A stretch of 64,000 nucleotides of DNA from a virus (Duplodnaviria > Caudoviricetes), in the IMG/VR virus record IMGVR_UViG_2713896764_000001, positions 1 through 64,000 of that record; one strand, written 5' to 3'. Position 1 is the stretch's first letter. Every line of letters starts with the position of its first letter. Below the pieces are notes generated by a model. It was not told the origin of the DNA, did no database searches, and saw only the letters and a list, made by a program, of their open reading frames with translations. Positions 1-64,000 of the stretch are shown piece by piece. Made by a program: the position numbers and the translations under genes.

Positions 1-495
1 TTAATCTGTTGCCGAAACCATATCGGCAAACATATTGGAGGCGTCGATATTTGGCTTATCGTCCTTATGTAAGGTATTGGGCTTACTGGCCTTGTTGGTG
101 TTATTTGCCTTGTTGACCTTGTTGGCACTCGACACCTTGTTGGTTTGACGGCCGATGCTTCGCCAGCTCTTGCTAACGACAACCGGCTGAACATCCACTT
201 CTACGGTCTTCGGCACGTATTCTTCGTAGAAAAGCGCTCGACCTGCCTTTCTCTCCGCAATCATCATTCGAACAGCCAGGCACTTGCTTGAACCAATGCA
301 GCCCTGACAATCAACAAATGAATTAGCGCCTAAGCGTTTATCTTTGAATGCCAAAACCGTGTGCTGGCAAACGACATAGTTGGCGATGCGACCGGTGCTT
401 TCGCAGGAAAAACTGTGCATGTTGCACCCTGAGCGGCTTTTTGAAAGTGGAATAACCTTCTCTTTTGCCTCTTTTGAAATTACCAACTGCCCCAT
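1..495 (-). CDS. hypothetical Cys-rich phage protein
   Basis: 164-aa ORF with several Cys residues and a low-complexity NK-rich tail; overlaps the upstream ORF. Confidence 0.7.
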   Translation of the reverse strand: MGQLVISKEAKEKVIPLSKSRSGCNMHSFSCESTGRIANYVVCQHTVLAFKDKRLGANSFVDCQGCIGSSKCLAVRMMIAERKAGRALFYEEYVPKTVEVDVQPVVVSKSWRSIGRQTNKVSSANKVNKANNTNKASKPNTLHKDDKPNIDASNMFADMVSATD

Positions 496-47670: not shown

Positions 47671-48075
47671 TTACTGCTCCCCGAATACTTCTCTTAGGAT
47701 TTTGGCAACGGTTCTCTTGGTGCCTTTGATGTTCACGACATATGGCTTCCCGTCCTTCATGGACGCCTTCTTTGGTCGGATGGTGACGCAGTCGCCTTTA
47801 TTGCTTAGGAAATATTTGCCGTTGAACTCCGGAACCTCTTTCCAGACAACTTTGCCATCGGCTTGCTCTTGAGTCGTAAACAACTCATCGACAAAGGTAT
47901 TGGACTGTCGCTTCCACTTGCTGCCGTCTTCTCTGATAAGCGTGAAGTGGTAGTAATCACCGTTGCTGGCTCTGGTCTTCTTTAGCGACCGCAGCTCCCT
48001 GATTTCTCCGTCCTCGTTAATCTGATATCCCTCGAACTCCGGAATATCACGCCATTCTTGATAATCGCCTTTCAT
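47671..48075 (-). CDS. NUMOD4-repeat protein without HNH domain
   Basis: EWRDIPEFEGYQINEDG and VWKEVPEFNGKYFLSNKG. Confidence 0.75.
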   Translation of the reverse strand: MKGDYQEWRDIPEFEGYQINEDGEIRELRSLKKTRASNGDYYHFTLIREDGSKWKRQSNTFVDELFTTQEQADGKVVWKEVPEFNGKYFLSNKGDCVTIRPKKASMKDGKPYVVNIKGTKRTVAKILREVFGEQ

Positions 48076-49226: not shown

Positions 49227-50590
49227 TGTGTTCGCTCCGTGGTTCCGTTGATGTGCTCATTTTCGCGGACTTGGAGAGGCAAGGAAGTGGATTGCTGAGG
49301 GCTGTCTGATTTCGCTCGGCTGAGCTTTTCTTCTGTCTGTTTTGAGAGGTTTTGCTTTTGCCTTGGCTGTTTCTCTTTACTTGTTCTTCTGTTTGCTCTG
49401 TTTTGGCTTTTTTCAGGTAAAAGTGGTCTTTTGAGCGATATGTGATACCAGCAAGAAATCACAAAATCTACCCAAGACCAAAGCCAACCCTGAATTAGAG
49501 GTTTCTGGAGAAAAATTGCGAGCGAGCGCTTAATTTTTAACCAACACTCTTTCCGGTTATCCGGCACACAAGTTTTTGTCTTCTTGAAAAGCTGACTTAT
49601 CGCGGCATCGTTCTGCGCAGTGCCCTGTCCTATTCAAACAGGAAGCCGAACCAAGTGGCTGCGGCTTACTTATTAGGCGCACATTGCATGGTGTGTCAAA
49701 CCCCGTGACTAAGCGGATACCAACCCGCGCTTTATGGTCGATTTCTACAGTTTCTTTTGGCTACTTAGTGCCTATAGTGGCATCACATTAACCCGCGTTT
49801 CACTGGCAGTGGTCGTTCTTCGCCAGAACCCCGCTCGAAGGGCTTCGCTTTTCAAGAGTAGTGCAATTAGGTTTCTGACTGGTTGTGTTATCGGGGAGCC
49901 GTCACTAAGCTCAACGCCCAAAGGAACAAAGACTAGCTGCGGCACGTTCCAATGAGTTGCACTACATCACTAACCGCTTACTTATTTTACATCCACCATA
50001 TAGAACAAAACAATCATTTAGCAGCCAATACCTAAGCAACTGCTTATTTTTTATCTAGTGAAGTAAAACGCTGTAGAACGCGCTCAGAGACGATTTAAGA
50101 AAAAGTGGAGCCACCGTATTCCCCACACTCAAAAACACGCAGGGAAGCGATTCTAGAAAGTTTCTCGGGAGTTTCTTGCGGAAGTTTTTAAACACCCCGC
50201 CAATTTACCCATTCAGTCATTTCCCGAAAGGTAAATTAGCAGTTCATTCCCTACTAACAGGCCAAGCACCCTGCGGGAAGCTCAGCCCCTTGCGAGAGCA
50301 TCTATTTCACCGGAGCAGATGTGGGAAAATAACGTATCCAGAACAGACTACGGGAGGAAATTTATCGCCTATCGAAAGTTGGCTTTTGCCTAACGAAATT
50401 CATTGATTGCCGTGAAAGCTGCATGAGACGATCTGTATGTGCTCGGGAACGGACACTTGCGGGAACCACATTGCGCCATAGAAATCCGCGGCCATTCACA
50501 ACCCCTAATACCAGTTCGGGGAACTGTCCCTAATCGTAGTTCCCTCATCAATGAGGGCAGCAAGCCGTAACCGGCCATATACGACCTCAG

Positions 50591-50636
50591 CCTTTCCCTA
50601 ATTTTTCCGGCTGGAAACCCCGATTCGAAATACCTG
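50591..50636 (+). repeat. 46-bp direct repeat, copy 2
   Basis: matches 47465-47510. Confidence 0.75.
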
Positions 50637-51757
50637 GCTAATATCCGCAAACCAACGGCAATTCTCCCTGACAAAAACTCACCTAATGAGAGCTTCCCTT
50701 TCGGTCCATATCCGGAACGTCACCTTTCTCAAAATTTTCAGGCCAGACTTCCCGACTCCAAACGCCTGACGGCGGAGAACTTGATTAAGTCATTGAAAGG
50801 GAATTTGTGCGGCGCGCCTTCCGAAACCCACTCTCCCTCTCCCCCTTACACCAGCTTCTCCCTATATCGCTTCCTCTCTCTTCTCCCTGTCTCTTAATAG
50901 TTGCTCCTCTCTAATGGAATGACAGCTTTCTTCACTCCTTATCATGGAAGGTGAATATCTCTTCTCTACTGGTCTTTCATCACTCCTGCTTATCTACGGA
51001 CTATTGCTCTCTAATGGGATTTGGTATCCGCGATTCTCTTCTCTACTGCTTTCCCTTTATAGAGCGTTGAGAGTGATGTTCTATGGCTGAGTCCTTGTGT
51101 TTACTGGCGGGAGAAGTGATTAGAGCTTTCTTATTGAAGGTGTATAGCGTGTTGGGCTTATGTGGTTTGTTTAGTTTATTGGGCTTGGTGATGTTGTTTA
51201 ATGGGTGGGTATTTGGGGATGGCTTCCCGCTGGTAGGATCTTGCGGTTTTACGAATCGTTTAATGGATTACGTGTTTAGGGGTTGAGTTGTTTTTTTGTT
51301 TTATTCGGTTCTGTTTGGGTGGTTTTGGGCGATATAAGAATTGGGGTCAGGGGTTAATCAAAAAGTAAGTATTTTTTCTTATTTTTTATTGATAACTCTT
51401 TGAGTGGGTTTGATTCTGACTCTCTTTGGTAAAAACAAAGATAAGAAATTGATATTAAAGGCTTTTTGTGTTTATGAGATAGTTTTGCTACATACTTATA
51501 TCTTTGACTGGTGTGGGTATAGGTTTTTGACCGTAAATTGCAAACATTTGACCGGTTTTAATTACCTTCCACTTGGCTCACTCCAAAAGGCTTGGCATTT
51601 GGTGCTGAACGATAGTTATTTGATTGGCTGTCCGGTAAGTAAAGCAAAGCCTCGCTGTGTGCGAGGCTAAAATGTTTATGTTGCTCGCTCTGCAACAAGA
51701 CTTCGGGGCTGCTCTACACCGGTCCCGAAGCCTCCACCTGGCTATACTCCGCAACCT

Positions 51758-51994
51758 TTACTGAGCGTCACGATTGGCAATTCGCTGGTATAGCTCTTTG
51801 TTCTGGCTGCGCAGTCGGAACACCTCGTTAATCAGGTGGCCGATGCACTCACTTGTCATCTGCTCACTCTTGATGCCCTTCTGGATCATCCAGTTGTAGA
51901 AGTTGTATGCCCCGTCTCTAGTTTCTAAGTTCGAGTCGATCCGGCTCAAAAAGTCAGTATCAATCAGGGCAATTACGTTGGTAGGTTTTGCCAT
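51758..51994 (-). CDS. hypothetical protein
   Basis: 78 aa, AAGGA RBS, promoter-like leader. Confidence 0.7.
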   Translation of the reverse strand: MAKPTNVIALIDTDFLSRIDSNLETRDGAYNFYNWMIQKGIKSEQMTSECIGHLINEVFRLRSQNKELYQRIANRDAQ

Positions 51995-52124: not shown

Positions 52125-52442
52125 TTATTCGGTTACTTCTTCAATCTCAACAGCTTGCTCGGATTCAGTTTCAGCAGGAGTTTCCGGCTGCTCCTGAACC
52201 AGCACGCCAAGGTCATGAAGCAGGCCAAGATCAACTTGGTTCTCAACGCCATTCGAGCTACGAACCAAGAACTTGTCTGCGCCTTTTTGGCCGGCAACAT
52301 TGGCTGCAATCAAAGCCGCCTGAACAGGGTTCTCAGCCTGAACAGGGTTCTCAGCCTGAACTCGAATAGGTGACAACTGCACCTCAAAAACAGGCAGTGT
52401 TTTATCAGTCATTACAGGGCTATCCATGTCGTTTGCTCTCAT
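52125..52442 (-). CDS. hypothetical acidic protein with a VQAENP duplication
   Basis: ORF downstream of two 18-bp palindromes. Confidence 0.55.
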   Translation of the reverse strand: MRANDMDSPVMTDKTLPVFEVQLSPIRVQAENPVQAENPVQAALIAANVAGQKGADKFLVRSSNGVENQVDLGLLHDLGVLVQEQPETPAETESEQAVEIEEVTE

Positions 52443-52525
52443 ACCGTTCGGGAAGATAGCGGCTTTTTAAAAAGTAAGTCAACACTTATTTTAAGTAAGC
52501 AATGACTTACCTTTTGAATGCAAAA

Positions 52526-53251
52526 CTACTTGGAGTTGTCTTCAGCCAACTCCTTAGCAATCCGCAGGTAGCCAAGTGTATCCGCGCAGGTTGGCTCGCT
52601 CACTTCGTGATAACGGAAGCAGTGTAATGTCGCGTAGGCATTCTTCCATAAGGCTTGGAACTTAACTTCATCCCCTGCTTTGGTCTTCCAGCCATTGCGT
52701 TTCCAGTTAGGCACCCAATGTCTAAAACCATTTTGCATGGCCGTTGATGAGGTGAAGATCATCGCCTGCTCCAGCTCACACTCGTTGAAAATCTTCATCG
52801 CGGCAATAATCGCGTATAGACCAGCCTGAATCTCGCCAGAAAAGGTGCCAGGCATTTTGAACTTGTAGTAAAGCTCTGCGCCGTTGTAGATGCAAAATGC
52901 CGTTGTCGTATTACCAACTGACGGCGTTACCACTTCCAAGGCTGCACAGACTGTCGATTTGTCGAACTCCGCAAGTCCTTTCACATGCTCAATCATCTTG
53001 TTCATGTCTGTGAACAGAGGGTGCTCGCTGTATCCGCTTCTGAGCGCTTTTGGTGGTAACTTGGTGCTGTGGTGGCTCTCTATGGCTTTAATCACTTCTA
53101 AATCGCGCAGGGAAGCGAATTTCGCCACGTCCGATATTAACTTTCCCCAATCCTCGCTGACTGGGTGGGTGGACGGAAAGGATTTCCGGATCAGATCGTC
53201 AATTCGCTTTACATAATCAGGCATTCCGGACTTATTCATCATAACCCTCAC
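52526..53251 (-). CDS. RNase HI-like protein, apparently catalytically inactive, with extra N-terminal domain
   Basis: GFRHWVPNWKRNGWKTKAGDEVKFQALW basic protrusion; acidic catalytic positions substituted. Confidence 0.8.
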   Translation of the reverse strand: MRVMMNKSGMPDYVKRIDDLIRKSFPSTHPVSEDWGKLISDVAKFASLRDLEVIKAIESHHSTKLPPKALRSGYSEHPLFTDMNKMIEHVKGLAEFDKSTVCAALEVVTPSVGNTTTAFCIYNGAELYYKFKMPGTFSGEIQAGLYAIIAAMKIFNECELEQAMIFTSSTAMQNGFRHWVPNWKRNGWKTKAGDEVKFQALWKNAYATLHCFRYHEVSEPTCADTLGYLRIAKELAEDNSK

Positions 53252-53315
53252 TTGTTGCTAGTGCTTAGTTAGATTTTGACTCCGCAGACAAGGCATCCAA
53301 GCAAATTGTCGATCA

Positions 53316-53532
53316 CCCCTTTTATATAAATTAAAAGGAATAAATATATTATTTATGGAAACGCGGTTTTTATTCAGTGTTAGGTAGTTCCGGATATTGA
53401 AATCTATCTCAGGAAACTAGGCTCTTGCAGAGCCTAGTTTCCTGAGATAACTCCGTAACTCCTTCACGATTACCTTCGGACAAAAAACCTAGCTTCCAAT
53501 ATATAAATATTCTTTTAATTATTTATATAGGG
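53316..53532. repeat. dispersed foldback element, copy C
   Basis: same inverted cores; perfect 21-bp internal inverted repeat 53405-53449. Confidence 0.85.
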
Positions 53533-53683
53533 AAGAACCTTGCGGATTACCCTGCCGCTCCCTCCAAATAGTAACCTAGCGCTTACTTAATTCAATAGGA
53601 AATCGTTCCGGACTTGCCTCTTCTCCAAAACGCTCTCAGACGATTCGGGACACTGTAGCTGTGGGTTGGCTTGGGTAAATACG

Positions 53684-53717
53684 AAAAAAGCGCCCCTGAG
53701 TGATTCTGGGCGCTTTT
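53684..53717. terminator. intrinsic terminator
   Basis: AAAAGCGCCC/GGGCGCTTTT. Confidence 0.75.
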
Positions 53718-53772
53718 CTGGGGGGGTGTAGTCTGTTTTTGTGCTCTTACGCTGCTTGCTTGAGAACGTCGT

Positions 53773-54168
53773 TTACAGAGGCCACGAGTAACTTGAACCC
53801 TTCGCGGTTATGGGCGAATTTTGCAATCTCACGGCGATGAGAGGTGTGTCCTTTTCGCCGTAGAACGGAAGGCCGTTTTCAAGCTCATAGGCAAAGAGCT
53901 TTCTCAAATACCCAAGCACACTGTAGGTAATGTGGCCTCGGTTCTTGGCACTTGTGCCGTTAAACACAAAGTTGATTGATTCGCCATCTTCCCAATGAAC
54001 CTCTACGTCATGCTTGTCGTAGCCTACTTTCGACAAGGTTGGTGCTTGTCGCAGCATCCAGTTCGTCGAATCGAGAATGGCGGATGGCTTGTCAAAAATT
54101 TCAGGCTTGTTGCACAATTTGAACTCGCCCTCCAAGCGAGTAATTATGATTTTGGTTACAGCAATCAC
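53773..54168 (-). CDS. hypothetical protein
   Basis: 131 aa; GYDKHDVEVHWEDG; palindrome at its start. Confidence 0.7.
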   Translation of the reverse strand: MIAVTKIIITRLEGEFKLCNKPEIFDKPSAILDSTNWMLRQAPTLSKVGYDKHDVEVHWEDGESINFVFNGTSAKNRGHITYSVLGYLRKLFAYELENGLPFYGEKDTPLIAVRLQNSPITAKGSSYSWPL

Positions 54169-54180
54169 TTAAGTCACCGA

Positions 54181-54558
54181 TTACTTATACACACAGAAAA
54201 AAATATATTCGCTATGCCCCTTGGTATCAGCCACCGCTTTTACACCCAAAGGTAATTCCCACTCATACCGAAAGCCGCGTATGTCCTCTTCTCGACGTTC
54301 ATTGAGAACTCGGTTGATCGTGCTGATCGCCAACGAAAGATCCTGTCCCCAAATAAGGCGCTGAATCAACTTGCCCTCTTCCGATTCCGTATTGCCATAC
54401 AGTCCGGCGCGATGCTGGGAAAACTCAACATTATATTTGCCATCGGTAAAAACGATATTCATGCGAGCGCCAAACCACGCTTTGCTTCTTTCCGGCGCAA
54501 CTATTCCCCATTGAATACAACTCATACCACGAACTTCCTTAATATTAAGCACAAGCAA
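54181..54558 (-). CDS. hypothetical protein
   Basis: 125-aa ORF in the operon. Confidence 0.65.
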   Translation of the reverse strand: MLVLNIKEVRGMSCIQWGIVAPERSKAWFGARMNIVFTDGKYNVEFSQHRAGLYGNTESEEGKLIQRLIWGQDLSLAISTINRVLNERREEDIRGFRYEWELPLGVKAVADTKGHSEYIFFCVYK

Positions 54559-58252: not shown

Positions 58253-58891
58253 TCAGTGAAGGGTTTTAGACTCGGCGCTCACGTAGCAGGCTTTGTGCGT
58301 CACGCCGGTTGTAAACTTATCCAGAACTCGAAGGCGATCTTCAAGCTCTGTCAGGAACAGAGGAATAACGCCGCAGCGCACAGACTTGCCCTCTTTTGAC
58401 ACCCCTACTTTGGAAAGCAGGTAGTAGCTGGATGAGGTAATGCGCTCCTGAGCAACGAAGTTAATCAAGCCTCGGTCGGTTCGCCTGATATCTTCTTCGG
58501 TCAGCTCGATACCTGGTTGAATCAGAACAAGACTGTCGAACAGTTGCTCTGCTGCCTCCAAGCACTCGAAAACATGCTGCTCCAATCGCTCACATTGCTC
58601 CGGCGTTGCACCGTAAGGCGCAATCGCAATTGAGTAAGCAGCAATATCAATCGGTGTCCGGTCAGCAATCATTTCAGGGTTGTTTTTCAACTGCTCAACC
58701 AAGTAGTCAAGCATATCGCGCTGGATATCAAGGCGCGTATCAAAGTCCATTTCAGAACGAACCTCTAAGCCGCGAACCTTAAACAAGCGACTTAGAGAGG
58801 TTTCAACGAAAGGCGTTTTCCATCGGGCAGAAAATGCTTTTGCCAGTGTTGTTTTTCCAGTGCCTTGAGCACCAATTAAACCGATTCGCAT
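58253..58891 (-). CDS. P-loop nucleotide kinase (dNMP kinase / AAA_28-like)
   Basis: MRIGLIGAQGTGKTT, ADRTPID; own AAGGA RBS. Confidence 0.8.
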   Translation of the reverse strand: MRIGLIGAQGTGKTTLAKAFSARWKTPFVETSLSRLFKVRGLEVRSEMDFDTRLDIQRDMLDYLVEQLKNNPEMIADRTPIDIAAYSIAIAPYGATPEQCERLEQHVFECLEAAEQLFDSLVLIQPGIELTEEDIRRTDRGLINFVAQERITSSSYYLLSKVGVSKEGKSVRCGVIPLFLTELEDRLRVLDKFTTGVTHKACYVSAESKTLH

Positions 58892-59383
58892 TGGTCTTCC
58901 TTTGAATACTTGCGGATAGCAAAGCCAAAACTGATTACGCTCATTTGCCTCATGATCTTCAAGCGTCTCAACCCTGCATAGAGACTTGTCAAAGCAAGGG
59001 AAAAACGTATCGCAATCAAGCTCCGCATCCACCTCTGTCAGATATATTTGCGAAGCATAAGGCAGGAATTGAGCGTAAATCTCGCTTCCGCCAATTACCC
59101 ACACATCAAATTCATTCGACAGGTCAATAACCGGCTGGATTTCACCGGTCGCCCACACGTCAGGTTTATGCCAGTTGCCATCACGAGTCAGGACGATATT
59201 GGTTCGATTAGGGAGTGGACGGCCAATTGAGTCAAAGGTCTTCCGCCCCATGACAACAATTGAGCCGGAGGTCATTCGCTTAAAGAAAGCCATGTCGTCG
59301 GAAAGTTTAAAGGGAAGCGCATTCTGCTTCCCAATTCCATAGGCACGATCGGCTGCAGCAATCAGTTTAAGCATTGAGTTCAC
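58876..59383 (-). CDS. folA: dihydrofolate reductase, frameshifted near the 3' end
   Basis: GIGKQNALPF, MGRKTF, PLPNRTNIVL, IGG, DTFFP; alternative frame gives NQFGFAIRKYSKE...*. Confidence 0.85.
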
Positions 59384-63053: not shown

Positions 63054-64000
63054 TTAGATTTTGCAGCCACCGTCGCAATCACTGTCTTTACTGCCATCAG
63101 AGTCCACTTCGCCAGCACCATCACGGGTGTTGTGGTAGTAAAGCGTCTTGATGCCAAGACGGTATGCAGTTAGCAGGTCGCGTAGAAGTTGTTGCATCGG
63201 GACAGCACCACCAAATGCACGAGGGTCATAGTTGGTGTTAGCCGAGATAGCCTGATCAACGAACTTCTGAATAACAGCAACAATTTCCAGATAGCCTTTG
63301 TTGCTTGGCATTTCCCACAGCAGCTCGTATTGCCAAGATAGGCTCGCAACATCCGGAACTACCTGCTTAATCATGCCGTCCTTGCTTGATTTCACAGACA
63401 CAAGGCCACGAGGCGGCTCAATACCGTTTGTCGCATTCGAAATCTGGGAAGACGTTTCAGATGGCATCAGAGCCGTCAGCGCTGAGTTGCGCAGACCATG
63501 TGCTTTGATTTCACCGCGCAGCCATTCCCAATCAAGTTTCAGCTCATGGCTACAGATTGAATCAACCGCTTTTGCATAGTGATCAATCGGCAGTAAGCCT
63601 TTCGCATACTTGGTTTCTTCAAACCACTCACACTTGCCTTTCGTCTTAGCAAGCTCGTTTGATGCTTTCAGCAAATAGAACTGAATTGCCTCAAAGGTTT
63701 CATGAACCAGTGGCAGGCCAGAGCCGTCAGAGTAGCGACGACCGTTCTTAGCCAAGTAGTAAGCCAAGTTAACGACACCAACACCTAGCGAACGACGCGC
63801 CTTCGTGCCAATCTCTGCGGCTTTAACCGGATAGTTCTGGTAGTCGAACAGGTTATCCAGAGCAGCAACTAGCAGGTATGACAGACGCTCAAGACGCTTC
63901 AGGTCACTTAGCGCACCAAGGTTGAATGCCGCCAGTGTGCAAAGCGCAATTTCGCCTTCCTCATCGAAAATATGATTCAGAGGCTTAGTTGGCAGCGTAA
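63054..64000 (-). CDS. nrdA: ribonucleotide reductase class Ia alpha subunit, 5'-truncated by the window
   Basis: MPSETSSQISNATNGIEP, KTLYY, C-terminal CDGGCKI; frame continues to the window edge (IALCTLAA). Confidence 0.96.
   Translation of the reverse strand, partial: TLPTKPLNHIFDEEGEIALCTLAAFNLGALSDLKRLERLSYLLVAALDNLFDYQNYPVKAAEIGTKARRSLGVGVVNLAYYLAKNGRRYSDGSGLPLVHETFEAIQFYLLKASNELAKTKGKCEWFEETKYAKGLLPIDHYAKAVDSICSHELKLDWEWLRGEIKAHGLRNSALTALMPSETSSQISNATNGIEPPRGLVSVKSSKDGMIKQVVPDVASLSWQYELLWEMPSNKGYLEIVAVIQKFVDQAISANTNYDPRAFGGAVPMQQLLRDLLTAYRLGIKTLYYHNTRDGAGEVDSDGSKDSDCDGGCKI

Follow-up and report, generated by a model that had tools for sequence, protein, structure and literature searches.

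A probable RNase HI pseudo-enzyme with an added helical domain in an SSU5-like phage-plasmid of aquatic bacteria

Laboratories trap R-loops with catalytically dead point mutants of RNase HI, itself a textbook enzyme. RNase H folds without the catalytic carboxylates occur as binding or scaffold units in the connection domain of retroviral reverse transcriptase (RT), the RNase H-like domain of Prp8 and the inactive PIWI domain of short Argonautes, all of them parts of large, unrelated proteins that have no RNase HI protrusion. In active RNases H1, the protrusion and the phosphate pocket hold the DNA strand, the RNA strand occupies the active-site groove, and the protrusion can touch double-stranded DNA as well (PMC8387031). 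Among phages, the RNase H-clamp protein (Rhc) of Chimalliviridae jumbo phages consists of an RNase H1 fold fused to a domain that tethers it to the phage's own replication machinery. SSU5-like phage-plasmids encode RNases HI with all catalytic residues (SSU5_090, Cyrano_82 and pJN226_0019), and one such element from Klebsiella oxytoca/michiganensis (pCAV1099-111) carries in the same slot as SSU5 an RNase HI with the substitutions D10N and D70S (WP_052959161). A full-text literature search turned up no article describing a dead RNase HI encoded by a phage.

We describe an RNase HI-like gene in a window (the whole stretch of DNA analysed) of 64,000 nucleotides from IMG/VR record IMGVR_UViG_2713896764_000001, positions 1 to 64,000. 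The element is an SSU5-like phage-plasmid of aquatic bacteria and encodes its own Pol III alpha, DnaQ-like exonuclease, DnaB-type helicase, RNR, thymidylate synthase and DHFR. Its portal protein is 59–61% identical to those of SSU5-like elements and its exonuclease 57%. The RNase HI-like gene lies among the replication genes, beside an extensive, repeat-rich stretch with few genes in which an origin could lie, and the SSU5-type elements SSU5, Cyrano and pJN2-26 carry their active RNase HI gene in the same neighbourhood. Shared with these elements are a DHFR/ATPase, a 3'-5' exonuclease, a phrog_5235 protein, a methyltransferase, and an RNase H near a phrog_5343 gene.

The longest open reading frame (52526..53251, minus strand) comprises 241 codons from a GTG at 53251, with its stop codon at 52526–52528. 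Because this GTG sits within a GAGGG Shine-Dalgarno-like run followed by two consecutive ATG codons, and because database copies of 237 or 238 aa begin at those ATGs rather than at the GTG, the true start is probably the ATG at 53242 (238 aa) or at 53239 (237 aa). The gene is therefore placed at 52526..53242, with support from Pfam and PHROG RNase H matches. The upstream intergenic region (53252..53772, minus strand) presumably holds the gene’s own promoter; it contains AT-rich tracts, a terminator-like hairpin with a T-run after the upstream gene (about 53685–53720, by eye) and a perfect 21-bp inverted repeat (53405–53449). The 21-bp hairpin was considered as a part of the system and rejected, since it is absent upstream of the homologues and one of its arms is changed without compensation in a freshwater variant. 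In two seawater metatranscriptome runs from a single study, contigs cover parts of 52521–53225 and of both downstream genes, and none lies over 53286–54300. These RNA-library contigs are a weak hint that cannot show transcription; such libraries may contain DNA, and the uncovered stretches prove nothing.

The protein has two domains, with an RNase HI fold at residues ~95–241 (52529..52969, minus strand; delimited with phmmer, hhalign, AlphaFold, Foldseek and VIA-align). An earlier note on this DNA, made by eye from the sequence, had recognised the relationship to RNase HI, and on this point Pfam, phrog_531, phmmer, hhalign and the AlphaFold/VIA-align comparison all agree. PF00075 matches at E 6.9e-7, narrowly exceeding its threshold of 25.8 bits with 30 bits and over profile positions 21–107 only, and phrog_531 (‘RNase H’) matches at E 6.6e-15. 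In the PDB, phmmer matched RNase H1 chains from E. coli and from human at E about 1e-7, and the hhalign probability to RNase HI is 99.4% in local and 99.66% in global alignment. The AlphaFold model, with pLDDT >90 across residues 80–241, displays the five-stranded sheet and helices A–E of the RNase H fold in canonical order. Foldseek matched the model to RNase H folds at E about 1e-7, and VIA-align placed model residues 95..241 onto E. coli RNase HI 1..142 (Z 15–16, rmsd 2.2–3.3 A over 136–141 residues for E. coli and human RNase H1). Homology with RNase HI is far above chance level. The NCBIfam equivalog for ribonuclease HI (NF001236) is clearly missed, at 41.6 bits against a cut-off of 160. 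Compared with E. coli RNase HI (RnhA) and the catalytic domain of human RNase H1, the window protein shares the fold, the order of secondary structures and the Trp-rich protrusion, but it is without the catalytic residues, its RNA-groove motifs are replaced, its loop from beta5 to the last helix is remodelled, and it carries an extra N-terminal part of ~94 residues. Its likeness to the RT connection domain, Prp8 and PIWI is one of fold only and implies no closer homology.

Catalytic residues were mapped through alignments and through the end points of the structural-alignment range. In E. coli numbering, E48 corresponds to G144 (phmmer, local and global hhalign), D70 to S168 in all alignments, and D134 to K233, on which MAFFT, global hhalign and the end points of the structural alignment concur; K233 lies within the IAKELA segment to which the earlier note had assigned a non-acidic residue. 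D10 is the sole catalytic position of uncertain register and falls, depending on the method, on L105, on E106 or in a three-residue deletion directly after E106; no Asp stands there, and E106 is not kept in the two full-length relatives. His124, the general base or product-release residue, corresponds to A223 (global hhalign) in a remodelled loop, the last helix of the AlphaFold model already beginning at residue 223. The protein thus has neither the four-carboxylate set (D10/E48/D70/D134) nor the His124 of RNase HI, as the earlier note had proposed for the carboxylates. Across the three family members the E48 column reads G/Q/N and the D70 column S/N/S; at D134 the relative P0025 has R, and P0003 has V in the family alignment or E in the large MAFFT alignment. 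Two acidic candidates were set aside: D224 (‘CADTL’) as the D134 equivalent, since the three methods just named place K233 there, and an Asp that each family member shows in the D10 column of the large MAFFT alignment, where the beta1 region is misaligned. The motifs on the RNA side are replaced too, namely the GNPG loop after beta1, TTNN before E48, and Q72. An intact RNase HI fold without the DEDD carboxylates supports the view that the protein is a pseudo-enzyme, repurposed from a nuclease.

The basic protrusion of the DNA-strand channel (helix C and the next loop) has been kept, again as read by eye, and is the best-conserved part of the domain. This segment with its Trp cluster (residues 175–203; 52643..52729, minus strand; defined by family alignments, charge and the match to E. 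coli 77–104) carries a net charge of +5 over 29 residues, and phmmer aligns it to E. coli RNase HI 77–104 with 13 identities in 28 residues. More than half of the invariant positions of the C-terminal domain (9 of 17 in residues 95–241) fall within it: G175, W179, W183, G187, W188, T190, G193, V196 and W202. From W179 onward these align with E. coli W81, W85, G89, W90, T92, V98 and W104. All three members mostly have Lys or Arg at 184, 185, 189 and 191. Across its full length the RNase H domain is not basic, with a net charge of −1 to −2, a trait that some canonical RNases HI share, and the phosphate-pocket residue N100 is Phe in the window protein and Asn in both relatives. The Trp cluster may be conserved for the stability of the fold rather than for function, because its Trp residues belong to the RNase HI core.

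Beyond the RNase H domain, residues ~5–94 make up the extra N-terminal domain that had been put at about 100 aa, and they comprise three predicted helices, a low-confidence linker and a further helix. The helical domain proper (residues ~5–60; 53072..53239, minus strand; from the family alignment and AlphaFold helices) has helices at 12–24, 30–46 and 50–59, predicted at pLDDT 52–83, and ten invariant positions within residues 11–38 (P11, D12, R16, D18, I21, F25, H29, D34, W35 and L38). It has no match in Pfam, PHROGs, short-protein homologues or PDB folds and no usable Atlas match; folded alone it reaches pLDDT 61, and its best PDB match (Z 4.3) is at noise level. The linker (residues ~61–94; 52970..53071, minus strand; from the pLDDT profile, cluster alignment and dN/dS comparison) is of low confidence in its first part, where other strains tolerate a four-residue in-frame deletion, and then has an invariant P78-x-F80 and helix 83–91, which packs on the RNase H domain in the model. 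The N-terminal part was also compared with the hybrid-binding domain (HBD, Cauli_VI type), the small alpha/beta domain that precedes the catalytic domain in some RNases H1. Relaxing the Pfam search to E 10 brought no match to the protein besides PF00075, and the low-confidence model of the N-terminal part is all-helical. The extra domain of Rhc is C-terminal and derived from a sliding clamp, and its sequence is unrelated to the N-terminal domain described here.

Only two full-length relatives were found, at 35% and 23–25% identity, and both keep the Trp-rich basic protrusion and the orphan helical N-terminal motif. P0062 and P0150 are other apparently dead RNase HI matches. Copies of the gene were found in freshwater, marine, sediment and biofloc metagenomes and also on NCBI replicons of about 2.0 Mb. 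Among phage records, megablast with the locus gave no match and tblastn with the protein gave one unrelated RNase HI only. The reading frames are intact in three lineages that have diverged to 23–35% identity with their motifs conserved. Environmental variants are synonymous in 6 of 6 cases (P about 0.001 for transitions under neutrality), and dN/dS among close strains is 0.09–0.40, in the range of purifying selection, with all amino-acid changes outside the RNase H core and a single 12-nt indel that is in frame. These observations support a gene that is maintained under purifying selection and not decaying, and they bear out the earlier argument for repurposing over decay.

Two genes follow the RNase HI-like gene and are co-conserved with it in every locus read. 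The first (52125..52442, minus strand) lies directly downstream in the window and in loci L001, L003, L004 and L094–L097, and encodes a very acidic protein of 105 aa (net charge −13, pI 4.2) with an acidic C-terminal tail. It is 63–64% and 40% identical among loci, and it has no Pfam, PHROG, NCBIfam, phage or plasmid match, all its Atlas matches being <0.8. The second (51758..51994, minus strand) encodes a 78-aa protein of phrog_5343 (PHROG match 3.3e-13), with tblastn homologues SSU5_089, Cyrano_80 and pJN226_0018. SSU5-type elements have their phrog_5343 homologue immediately before the active RNase HI gene, on its upstream side. The order there is phrog_5343, a gap and RNase H, and in the window it is the RNase H-like gene, the acidic gene and phrog_5343.

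Descent from an SSU5-type RNase HI gene is plausible, and the evidence for it is the shared neighbourhood; we go no further than plausible because the slot differs and the tree cannot place the family, which sits on very long branches (1.4–3.2 substitutions per site). Flanking genes are 35–57% identical to those of SSU5, and the RNase H domain is 34% identical over 70 residues only. SSU5-type RNases HI and the window protein both have an E-F-(D/N) motif just before beta1; in place of the helical domain, the SSU5-type proteins have a short basic N-terminal tail. The Klebsiella protein keeps E48, D134 and most RNA-groove residues, is without the helical N-terminal domain, and scores near the equivalog cut-off (144.7 bits against 160). 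In the phylogeny it clusters with RNases HI of the SSU5 type and of proteobacteria, apart from the family described here.

With the carboxylates and the RNA groove lost, the protrusion invariant and an N-terminal domain added, we favour a non-catalytic RNase HI descendant that acts as a binding or adaptor protein, docking on a DNA-containing duplex and engaging a partner through its N-terminal domain; we give this reading an about even chance. The window protein thus probably works as a binder rather than as a nuclease. The ancestor would have been a type-1 RNase H in the replication and nucleotide-metabolism part of SSU5-like phage-plasmids, whose two-metal active site was dismantled with the loss of D10, E48, D70, D134 and His124, and in two of the three members Lys or Arg now stands in place of D134. 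The groove motifs for the RNA strand would also have gone while the Trp-rich basic protrusion stayed invariant, and a new helical N-terminal domain would have been gained with an invariant motif of its own. The RNase H-fold domain might then dock on a DNA-containing duplex, either hybrid or double-stranded DNA, and leave it uncut. The N-terminal domain would bind a partner, most likely a replication or early-gene protein of the element or the downstream acidic protein. What the analysis shows is the fold, the lost catalytic residues, the conserved protrusion and N-terminal motif, the selection, the neighbourhood and the co-conserved genes; that the protein binds nucleic acid and serves as an adaptor, and which partner it has, we infer. 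Specificity for RNA:DNA hybrids is not implied by these features, because in RNases H1 the protrusion grips the DNA strand, and here the RNA-side motifs are replaced.

The protein could instead be a pure scaffold, such as a replisome or regulatory subunit, that binds no nucleic acid, contacts proteins through its N-terminal motif and a surface of the old domain, and keeps its Trp cluster for folding only. The near-neutral net charge of the RNase H domain would suit such a role, as would the loss of both RNA groove and metal site and the prominence of the N-terminal motif, which is the strongest family-specific conservation. Precedents exist in the RT connection domain and Prp8, established non-catalytic RNase H modules of proteins, and in chimallivirus Rhc, where an extra domain tethers a phage RNase H to the replisome. 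Against it stand the Lys/Arg residues of the protrusion (184, 185, 189 and 191), most of which persist throughout the family, and the invariance of G187, T190 and G193, which are not core residues, and we regard a scaffold of this kind as unlikely, if worth keeping in view.

The earlier note had suggested a hybrid binder that shields RNA:DNA duplexes from host RNase HI, stabilising R-loop primers or disabling hybrid- or RT-based defences, retrons included. The retained, basic protrusion and the position of the gene amid replication genes, near a possible origin region, are compatible with this. Dead RNase H1 mutants do still hold hybrids, and crystals of human D210N with hybrid are among the fold matches of our model. 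Such mutants, however, differ from the active enzyme by a single carboxylate and have all their RNA-contact residues, whereas here the GNPG loop, TTNN and Q72 are replaced along with every carboxylate, each family member having its own substitutions; in RNases H1 the protrusion contacts the DNA strand, not the RNA strand (PMC8387031). Loss of RNase H halts msDNA maturation and frees the toxin of retron-Sen2/Eco9 (bioRxiv 10.1101/2020.06.22.160168), so blocking maturation would trigger that defence rather than silence it. PADLOC, moreover, matched neither the protein nor its two relatives nor the two downstream genes. Hybrid shielding is in our view doubtful.

More speculative, and rather improbable as we see it, is a module of three genes, particular to this lineage of phage-plasmids, for the inactive RNase HI, the acidic protein and the phrog_5343 protein. 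The RNase H fold would serve in it as a sensor or clamp that recognises R-loops or other DNA-containing hybrids without cutting them, the acidic protein acting as a nucleic-acid mimic that gates the protrusion. A module of this sort might license R-loop-primed replication despite host RNase HI, or act in conflict with other phages or host defences.

An active nuclease with an unconventional acidic set (for example E106, E140, D224 and E234) could draw on E106 lying within one residue of the D10 position and on the family-invariant E234 adjoining the D134 position, but E234 alone of this set is conserved and equals the non-catalytic E135 of E. coli, and Gly, Ser and Lys stand at E48, D70 and D134, making cleavage very hard to credit. 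Equally hard to credit is a functionless, decaying relic of a phage RNase HI with a reading frame intact by chance: the very long branches, the lost catalytic residues and the partial loss in the Klebsiella gene (D10N, D70S), possibly a stage of decay, would fit, but the three intact and motif-conserving lineages, the synonymous-only close-strain variants with their one in-frame indel, the acquisition of a conserved extra domain and, as a weak hint, the RNA-library contigs over the gene all speak against it.

A binding or adaptor protein descended from RNase HI thus remains the reading we favour. A natural RNase HI that is under selection, fully inactivated and joined to a new domain would show the reuse of this fold by a mobile element. 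It would also offer a compact case of passage from enzyme to binder, from the active SSU5 type through the partly inactivated Klebsiella type to a fully inactivated protein with a new domain. If the protein is a scaffold only, the catalogue of pseudo-enzymes would grow by one modest entry. If the protein does bind, it may provide a natural nucleic-acid-binding reagent, and if binding to hybrids or DNA holds true in vivo, it would bear on how phage-plasmids of this kind start or protect their replication.

The gene at 52526-53251(-) is a real ORF. Its longest reading opens at GTG 53251, within a GAGGG ribosome-binding-like run that is followed by ATG ATG, and database copies all start at one or other of these ATGs, yielding 237 or 238 aa. 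We take the likely start to be 53242 or 53239; residue numbers follow the 241-codon reading of the window protein (P0001). When 1.84 billion representatives were searched exhaustively with phmmer, only two further full-length relatives emerged, P0003 (240 aa, 35% identity to the window protein) and P0025 (221 aa, with an identity of 23-29% that varies with the method), and a profile search of 5.8 billion proteins added no full-length relatives.

Several lines of evidence place the protein in the RNase HI fold. It matched Pfam RNase_H (PF00075) over residues 117-207 (E 6.9e-7, barely above the gathering score), PHROG 531 'RNase H' (E 6.6e-15) and, by phmmer against PDB sequences, E. coli RNase HI and human RNase H1 (E about 1e-7). 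Alignment of the three-member profile to 24 canonical RNases HI with hhalign gave probabilities of 99.4% (local) and 99.66% (global). An AlphaFold model built from 99 aligned sequences reached a mean pLDDT of 85.6, exceeding 90 from residue 80 to the end, with predicted secondary structure in the canonical order: strands beta1 (101-108), beta2 (115-123), beta3 (126-132), beta4 (162-167) and beta5 (214-218), and helices A (140-157), B/C (170-185), D (199-209) and E (223-240). The top Foldseek and VIA-align matches were RNase H domains from E. coli, Shewanella, Chlorobium, human and foamy virus (Z 15-17, rmsd 2.2-3.3 A over 136-146 residues), with model residues 95..241 superposed on E. coli 1..142.

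The former active site was mapped by sequence and profile alignments and by the end points of the structural alignments. E. coli E48 corresponds to G144 (both hhalign modes, local and global, and the phmmer match to human RNase H1), D70 to S168 in every alignment, H124 to A223 (global hhalign), and D134 to K233 (MAFFT of 99 sequences, global hhalign and structural alignment). In the structural alignment the final helix runs on without a break, bringing model residue 241 opposite E. coli 142, human 282 and Chlorobium 143. D224 of 'CADTL' was considered as the D134 equivalent and rejected, with three methods against it. D10 is the sole uncertain catalytic position, its register varying by one to three residues with the method: ungapped extension of the local hhalign alignment points to L105, structural-alignment start points (98 to 2, 99 to 3) to E106, and global hhalign sets the T-D-G triplet in a 3-residue gap directly after E106. 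None of the three registers places an Asp there in the window protein, and in the three-way alignment P0003 has Ala, Thr or a gap opposite E106, and P0025 has Phe. The placement of all four carboxylate positions (D10, E48, D70 and D134), made by eye in the earlier note, is thus borne out. RNA-strand groove motifs are replaced too, differently in each family member (G-N-P-G after beta1, T-T-N-N before E48 and Q72 after D70), and the window protein falls far short of the NCBI ribonuclease HI equivalog model (41.6 bits vs 160). It very probably lacks RNase H activity.

What the family has kept is concentrated in two blocks. Nine of the 17 positions invariant in the C-terminal domain of the three-way alignment lie within the 29-residue protrusion, the basic Trp-rich segment of RNases HI (residues 175-203): G175, W179, W183, G187, W188, T190, G193, V196 and W202, corresponding to E. 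coli W81, W85, G89, W90, T92, V98 and W104. Lys or Arg is largely preserved at positions 184, 185, 189 and 191, and the segment carries a net charge of +5. The second block (P11, D12, R16, D18, I21, F25, H29, D34, W35 and L38) falls in the first two of three predicted N-terminal helices. Searches for this N-terminal part found no relative in Pfam, PHROG, NCBIfam, Atlas or short proteins; modelled by itself, it came out helical at low confidence, and no structural match exceeded Z 4.3.

The gene is under purifying selection. The ORF is intact in all three lineages at 23-35% identity. Among eight near-identical proteins, taken from Logan assemblies and from ~2.0-Mb NCBI replicons, the sole differences are A56D, I87F, D238N, S240T and a 4-residue in-frame deletion in the low-confidence linker, leaving the RNase H core free of all of them; pairwise dN/dS was 0.09-0.40, calculated from very few changes in total. 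Independent environmental contigs (from freshwater DNA and from RNA libraries of seawater) show six differences from the window within the gene, all six being third-position synonymous transitions (P about 0.001 if transitions were random). Contigs from two seawater metatranscriptome runs span parts of the gene and the two genes downstream, which hints only weakly at expression.

Between the upstream gene and the ORF lie 520 bp of intergenic DNA, with an intrinsic-terminator-like hairpin and T-run, read by eye, after the upstream gene at ~53685-53720, so the dead RNase H gene probably has its own promoter; another terminator-like site (52091-52072) comes after the next downstream gene. At 53405-53449, ~155-200 nt upstream of the dead RNase H gene, is a perfect 21-bp inverted repeat whose loop is 3 nt long. 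It was not found upstream of homologous genes in five other loci, and in a freshwater variant one arm has a substitution and has lost 1 nt while nothing compensates in the other, so the repeat does not appear to be conserved as part of the system.

Two small genes lie directly downstream in every locus read (the window, the P0003 locus L001, and loci L003, L004 and L094-L097), and both are better conserved than the dead RNase H. The first encodes an orphan acidic protein (63-64% and 40% identity; net charge -13, pI 4.2, acidic C-terminal tail), and the second a phrog_5343 protein (65% and 46%). In the window the acidic gene (52125-52442(-)) contains a tandem 'ENPVQA' duplication, which is single copy in environmental contigs and the P0003 locus (an 18-nt in-frame difference at 52318). 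After this three-gene module, ~2.2 kb (49570-51750) is devoid of convincing ORFs, and a similar 2.3-kb gap occurs in the P0003 locus (L001 9973-12277); the stretch may hold an origin or RNA genes. Upstream genes vary among loci (a CbeA-like pair, NrdD, Dam or HNH). Two small upstream genes in the window (53773-54558(-)) match in position a pair in the P0003 locus (L001:4514-5309) whose first member matches CbeA_antitoxin (PF06154, 1.5e-10), and may form a type IV toxin-antitoxin-like pair beside a truncated N6-methyltransferase-like gene. L095, from another strain, has an HNH gene in place of the pair.

The window is part of an IMG/VR provirus record of 93.7 kb, whose portal shows 59-61% identity to the portals of Salmonella phage SSU5 and of SSU5-like phage-plasmids from E. 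coli and Klebsiella. The element encodes its own Pol III alpha, a DnaQ-like 3'-5' exonuclease, a DnaB-type helicase, ribonucleotide reductase, thymidylate synthase and DHFR; the dead RNase H is its only RNase H homologue. In the phage-plasmids SSU5, Cyrano and pJN2-26 the order is DHFR, ATPase, exonuclease, phrog_5235, methyltransferase, phrog_5343, a gap and RNase HI, the gap measuring ~0.3-0.6 kb (0.27 kb in Cyrano, where it contains one more small gene). Unlike the window protein, these RNases HI have all catalytic residues. The window shares the flanking exonuclease (57% identical) and phrog_5235 protein (35%) with SSU5, but its order differs: methyltransferase-like gene, two small genes, gap, dead RNase H, acidic 105-aa gene, phrog_5343 and the gene-poor stretch. 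The neighbourhood is of SSU5 type, but the slot is not identical. The RNase H part shares only 34% identity with that of SSU5 over 70 residues, and the tree left the family unplaced, on very long branches. The simplest account, though not proven, is that the gene descends from a phage-plasmid RNase HI and then changed fast.

Elsewhere in the element, DHFR (residues 4-156) is fused to an AAA_28/thymidylate-kinase-like ATPase in one 376-aa ORF (58253-59383(-)), whereas SSU5 has two adjacent genes, SSU5_083 and SSU5_084. A 237-aa ORF at 63054-63767(-) matches just positions 568-795 of the 975-position RNR large-subunit profile, and nrdA may be split or interrupted there. An HNH endonuclease gene lies at 47671-48075. 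Outside the window, a 553-aa ORF near the record end has a weak tyrosine-recombinase match (G000:C1:92190-92627, 17.7 bits, below cut-off) that might explain why an SSU5-like element on replicons of about 2.0 Mb was recorded as a provirus.

Klebsiella oxytoca/michiganensis SSU5-like phage-plasmids carry a 187-aa 'RNase H family protein' in the SSU5 slot (L008:5040-5600 in K. oxytoca pCAV1099-111; L009:4887-5447), with D10 changed to N and D70 to S; this type occurs in five plasmid records. It retains E48, D134 and most substrate-groove residues, unlike the window protein, and is seemingly a second, independent and milder inactivation of phage-plasmid RNase HI. About one fifth of our aligned hits miss one or more carboxylates, in a set seeded with the dead query and partly unreliably aligned. 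Non-catalytic RNase H folds are known elsewhere, as in the RT connection domain, Prp8 and inactive PIWI. Our literature search turned up no publication describing an inactive RNase HI encoded by a phage. Chimallivirus Rhc, the closest phage case in which a domain has been added, depends on its catalytic activity.

The analysis establishes an RNase HI fold that lacks the metal site, conservation of the protrusion and of a new N-terminal motif, purifying selection, and a replication-gene neighbourhood; everything concerning function is what we infer. In RNases H1 the DNA strand is gripped by a phosphate pocket and the core-protrusion channel, the active-site groove takes the RNA strand, and the protrusion is also able to touch dsDNA (PMC8387031; PMC9719913). 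The window protein would thus have kept its DNA-side grip with the RNA side dismantled, from which the most likely roles are docking of the RNase H-fold protein on DNA-containing duplexes without cutting, or a pure protein module, with the N-terminal domain binding a partner. We consider the binding-adaptor reading as a whole about an even call. Specific shielding of hybrids from host RNase HI, as the earlier note had proposed, seems improbable to us. Its further suggestion, counter-defence by blocking retron msDNA maturation, is unlikely as given, since without RNase H the msDNA of retron-Sen2 and Eco9 fails to mature and the toxin is released (bioRxiv 10.1101/2020.06.22.160168), so that a block would trigger the defence. 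The dead RNase HI and its relatives form a rare three-cluster family that has its own N-terminal domain and, in sister elements, a clear active counterpart.
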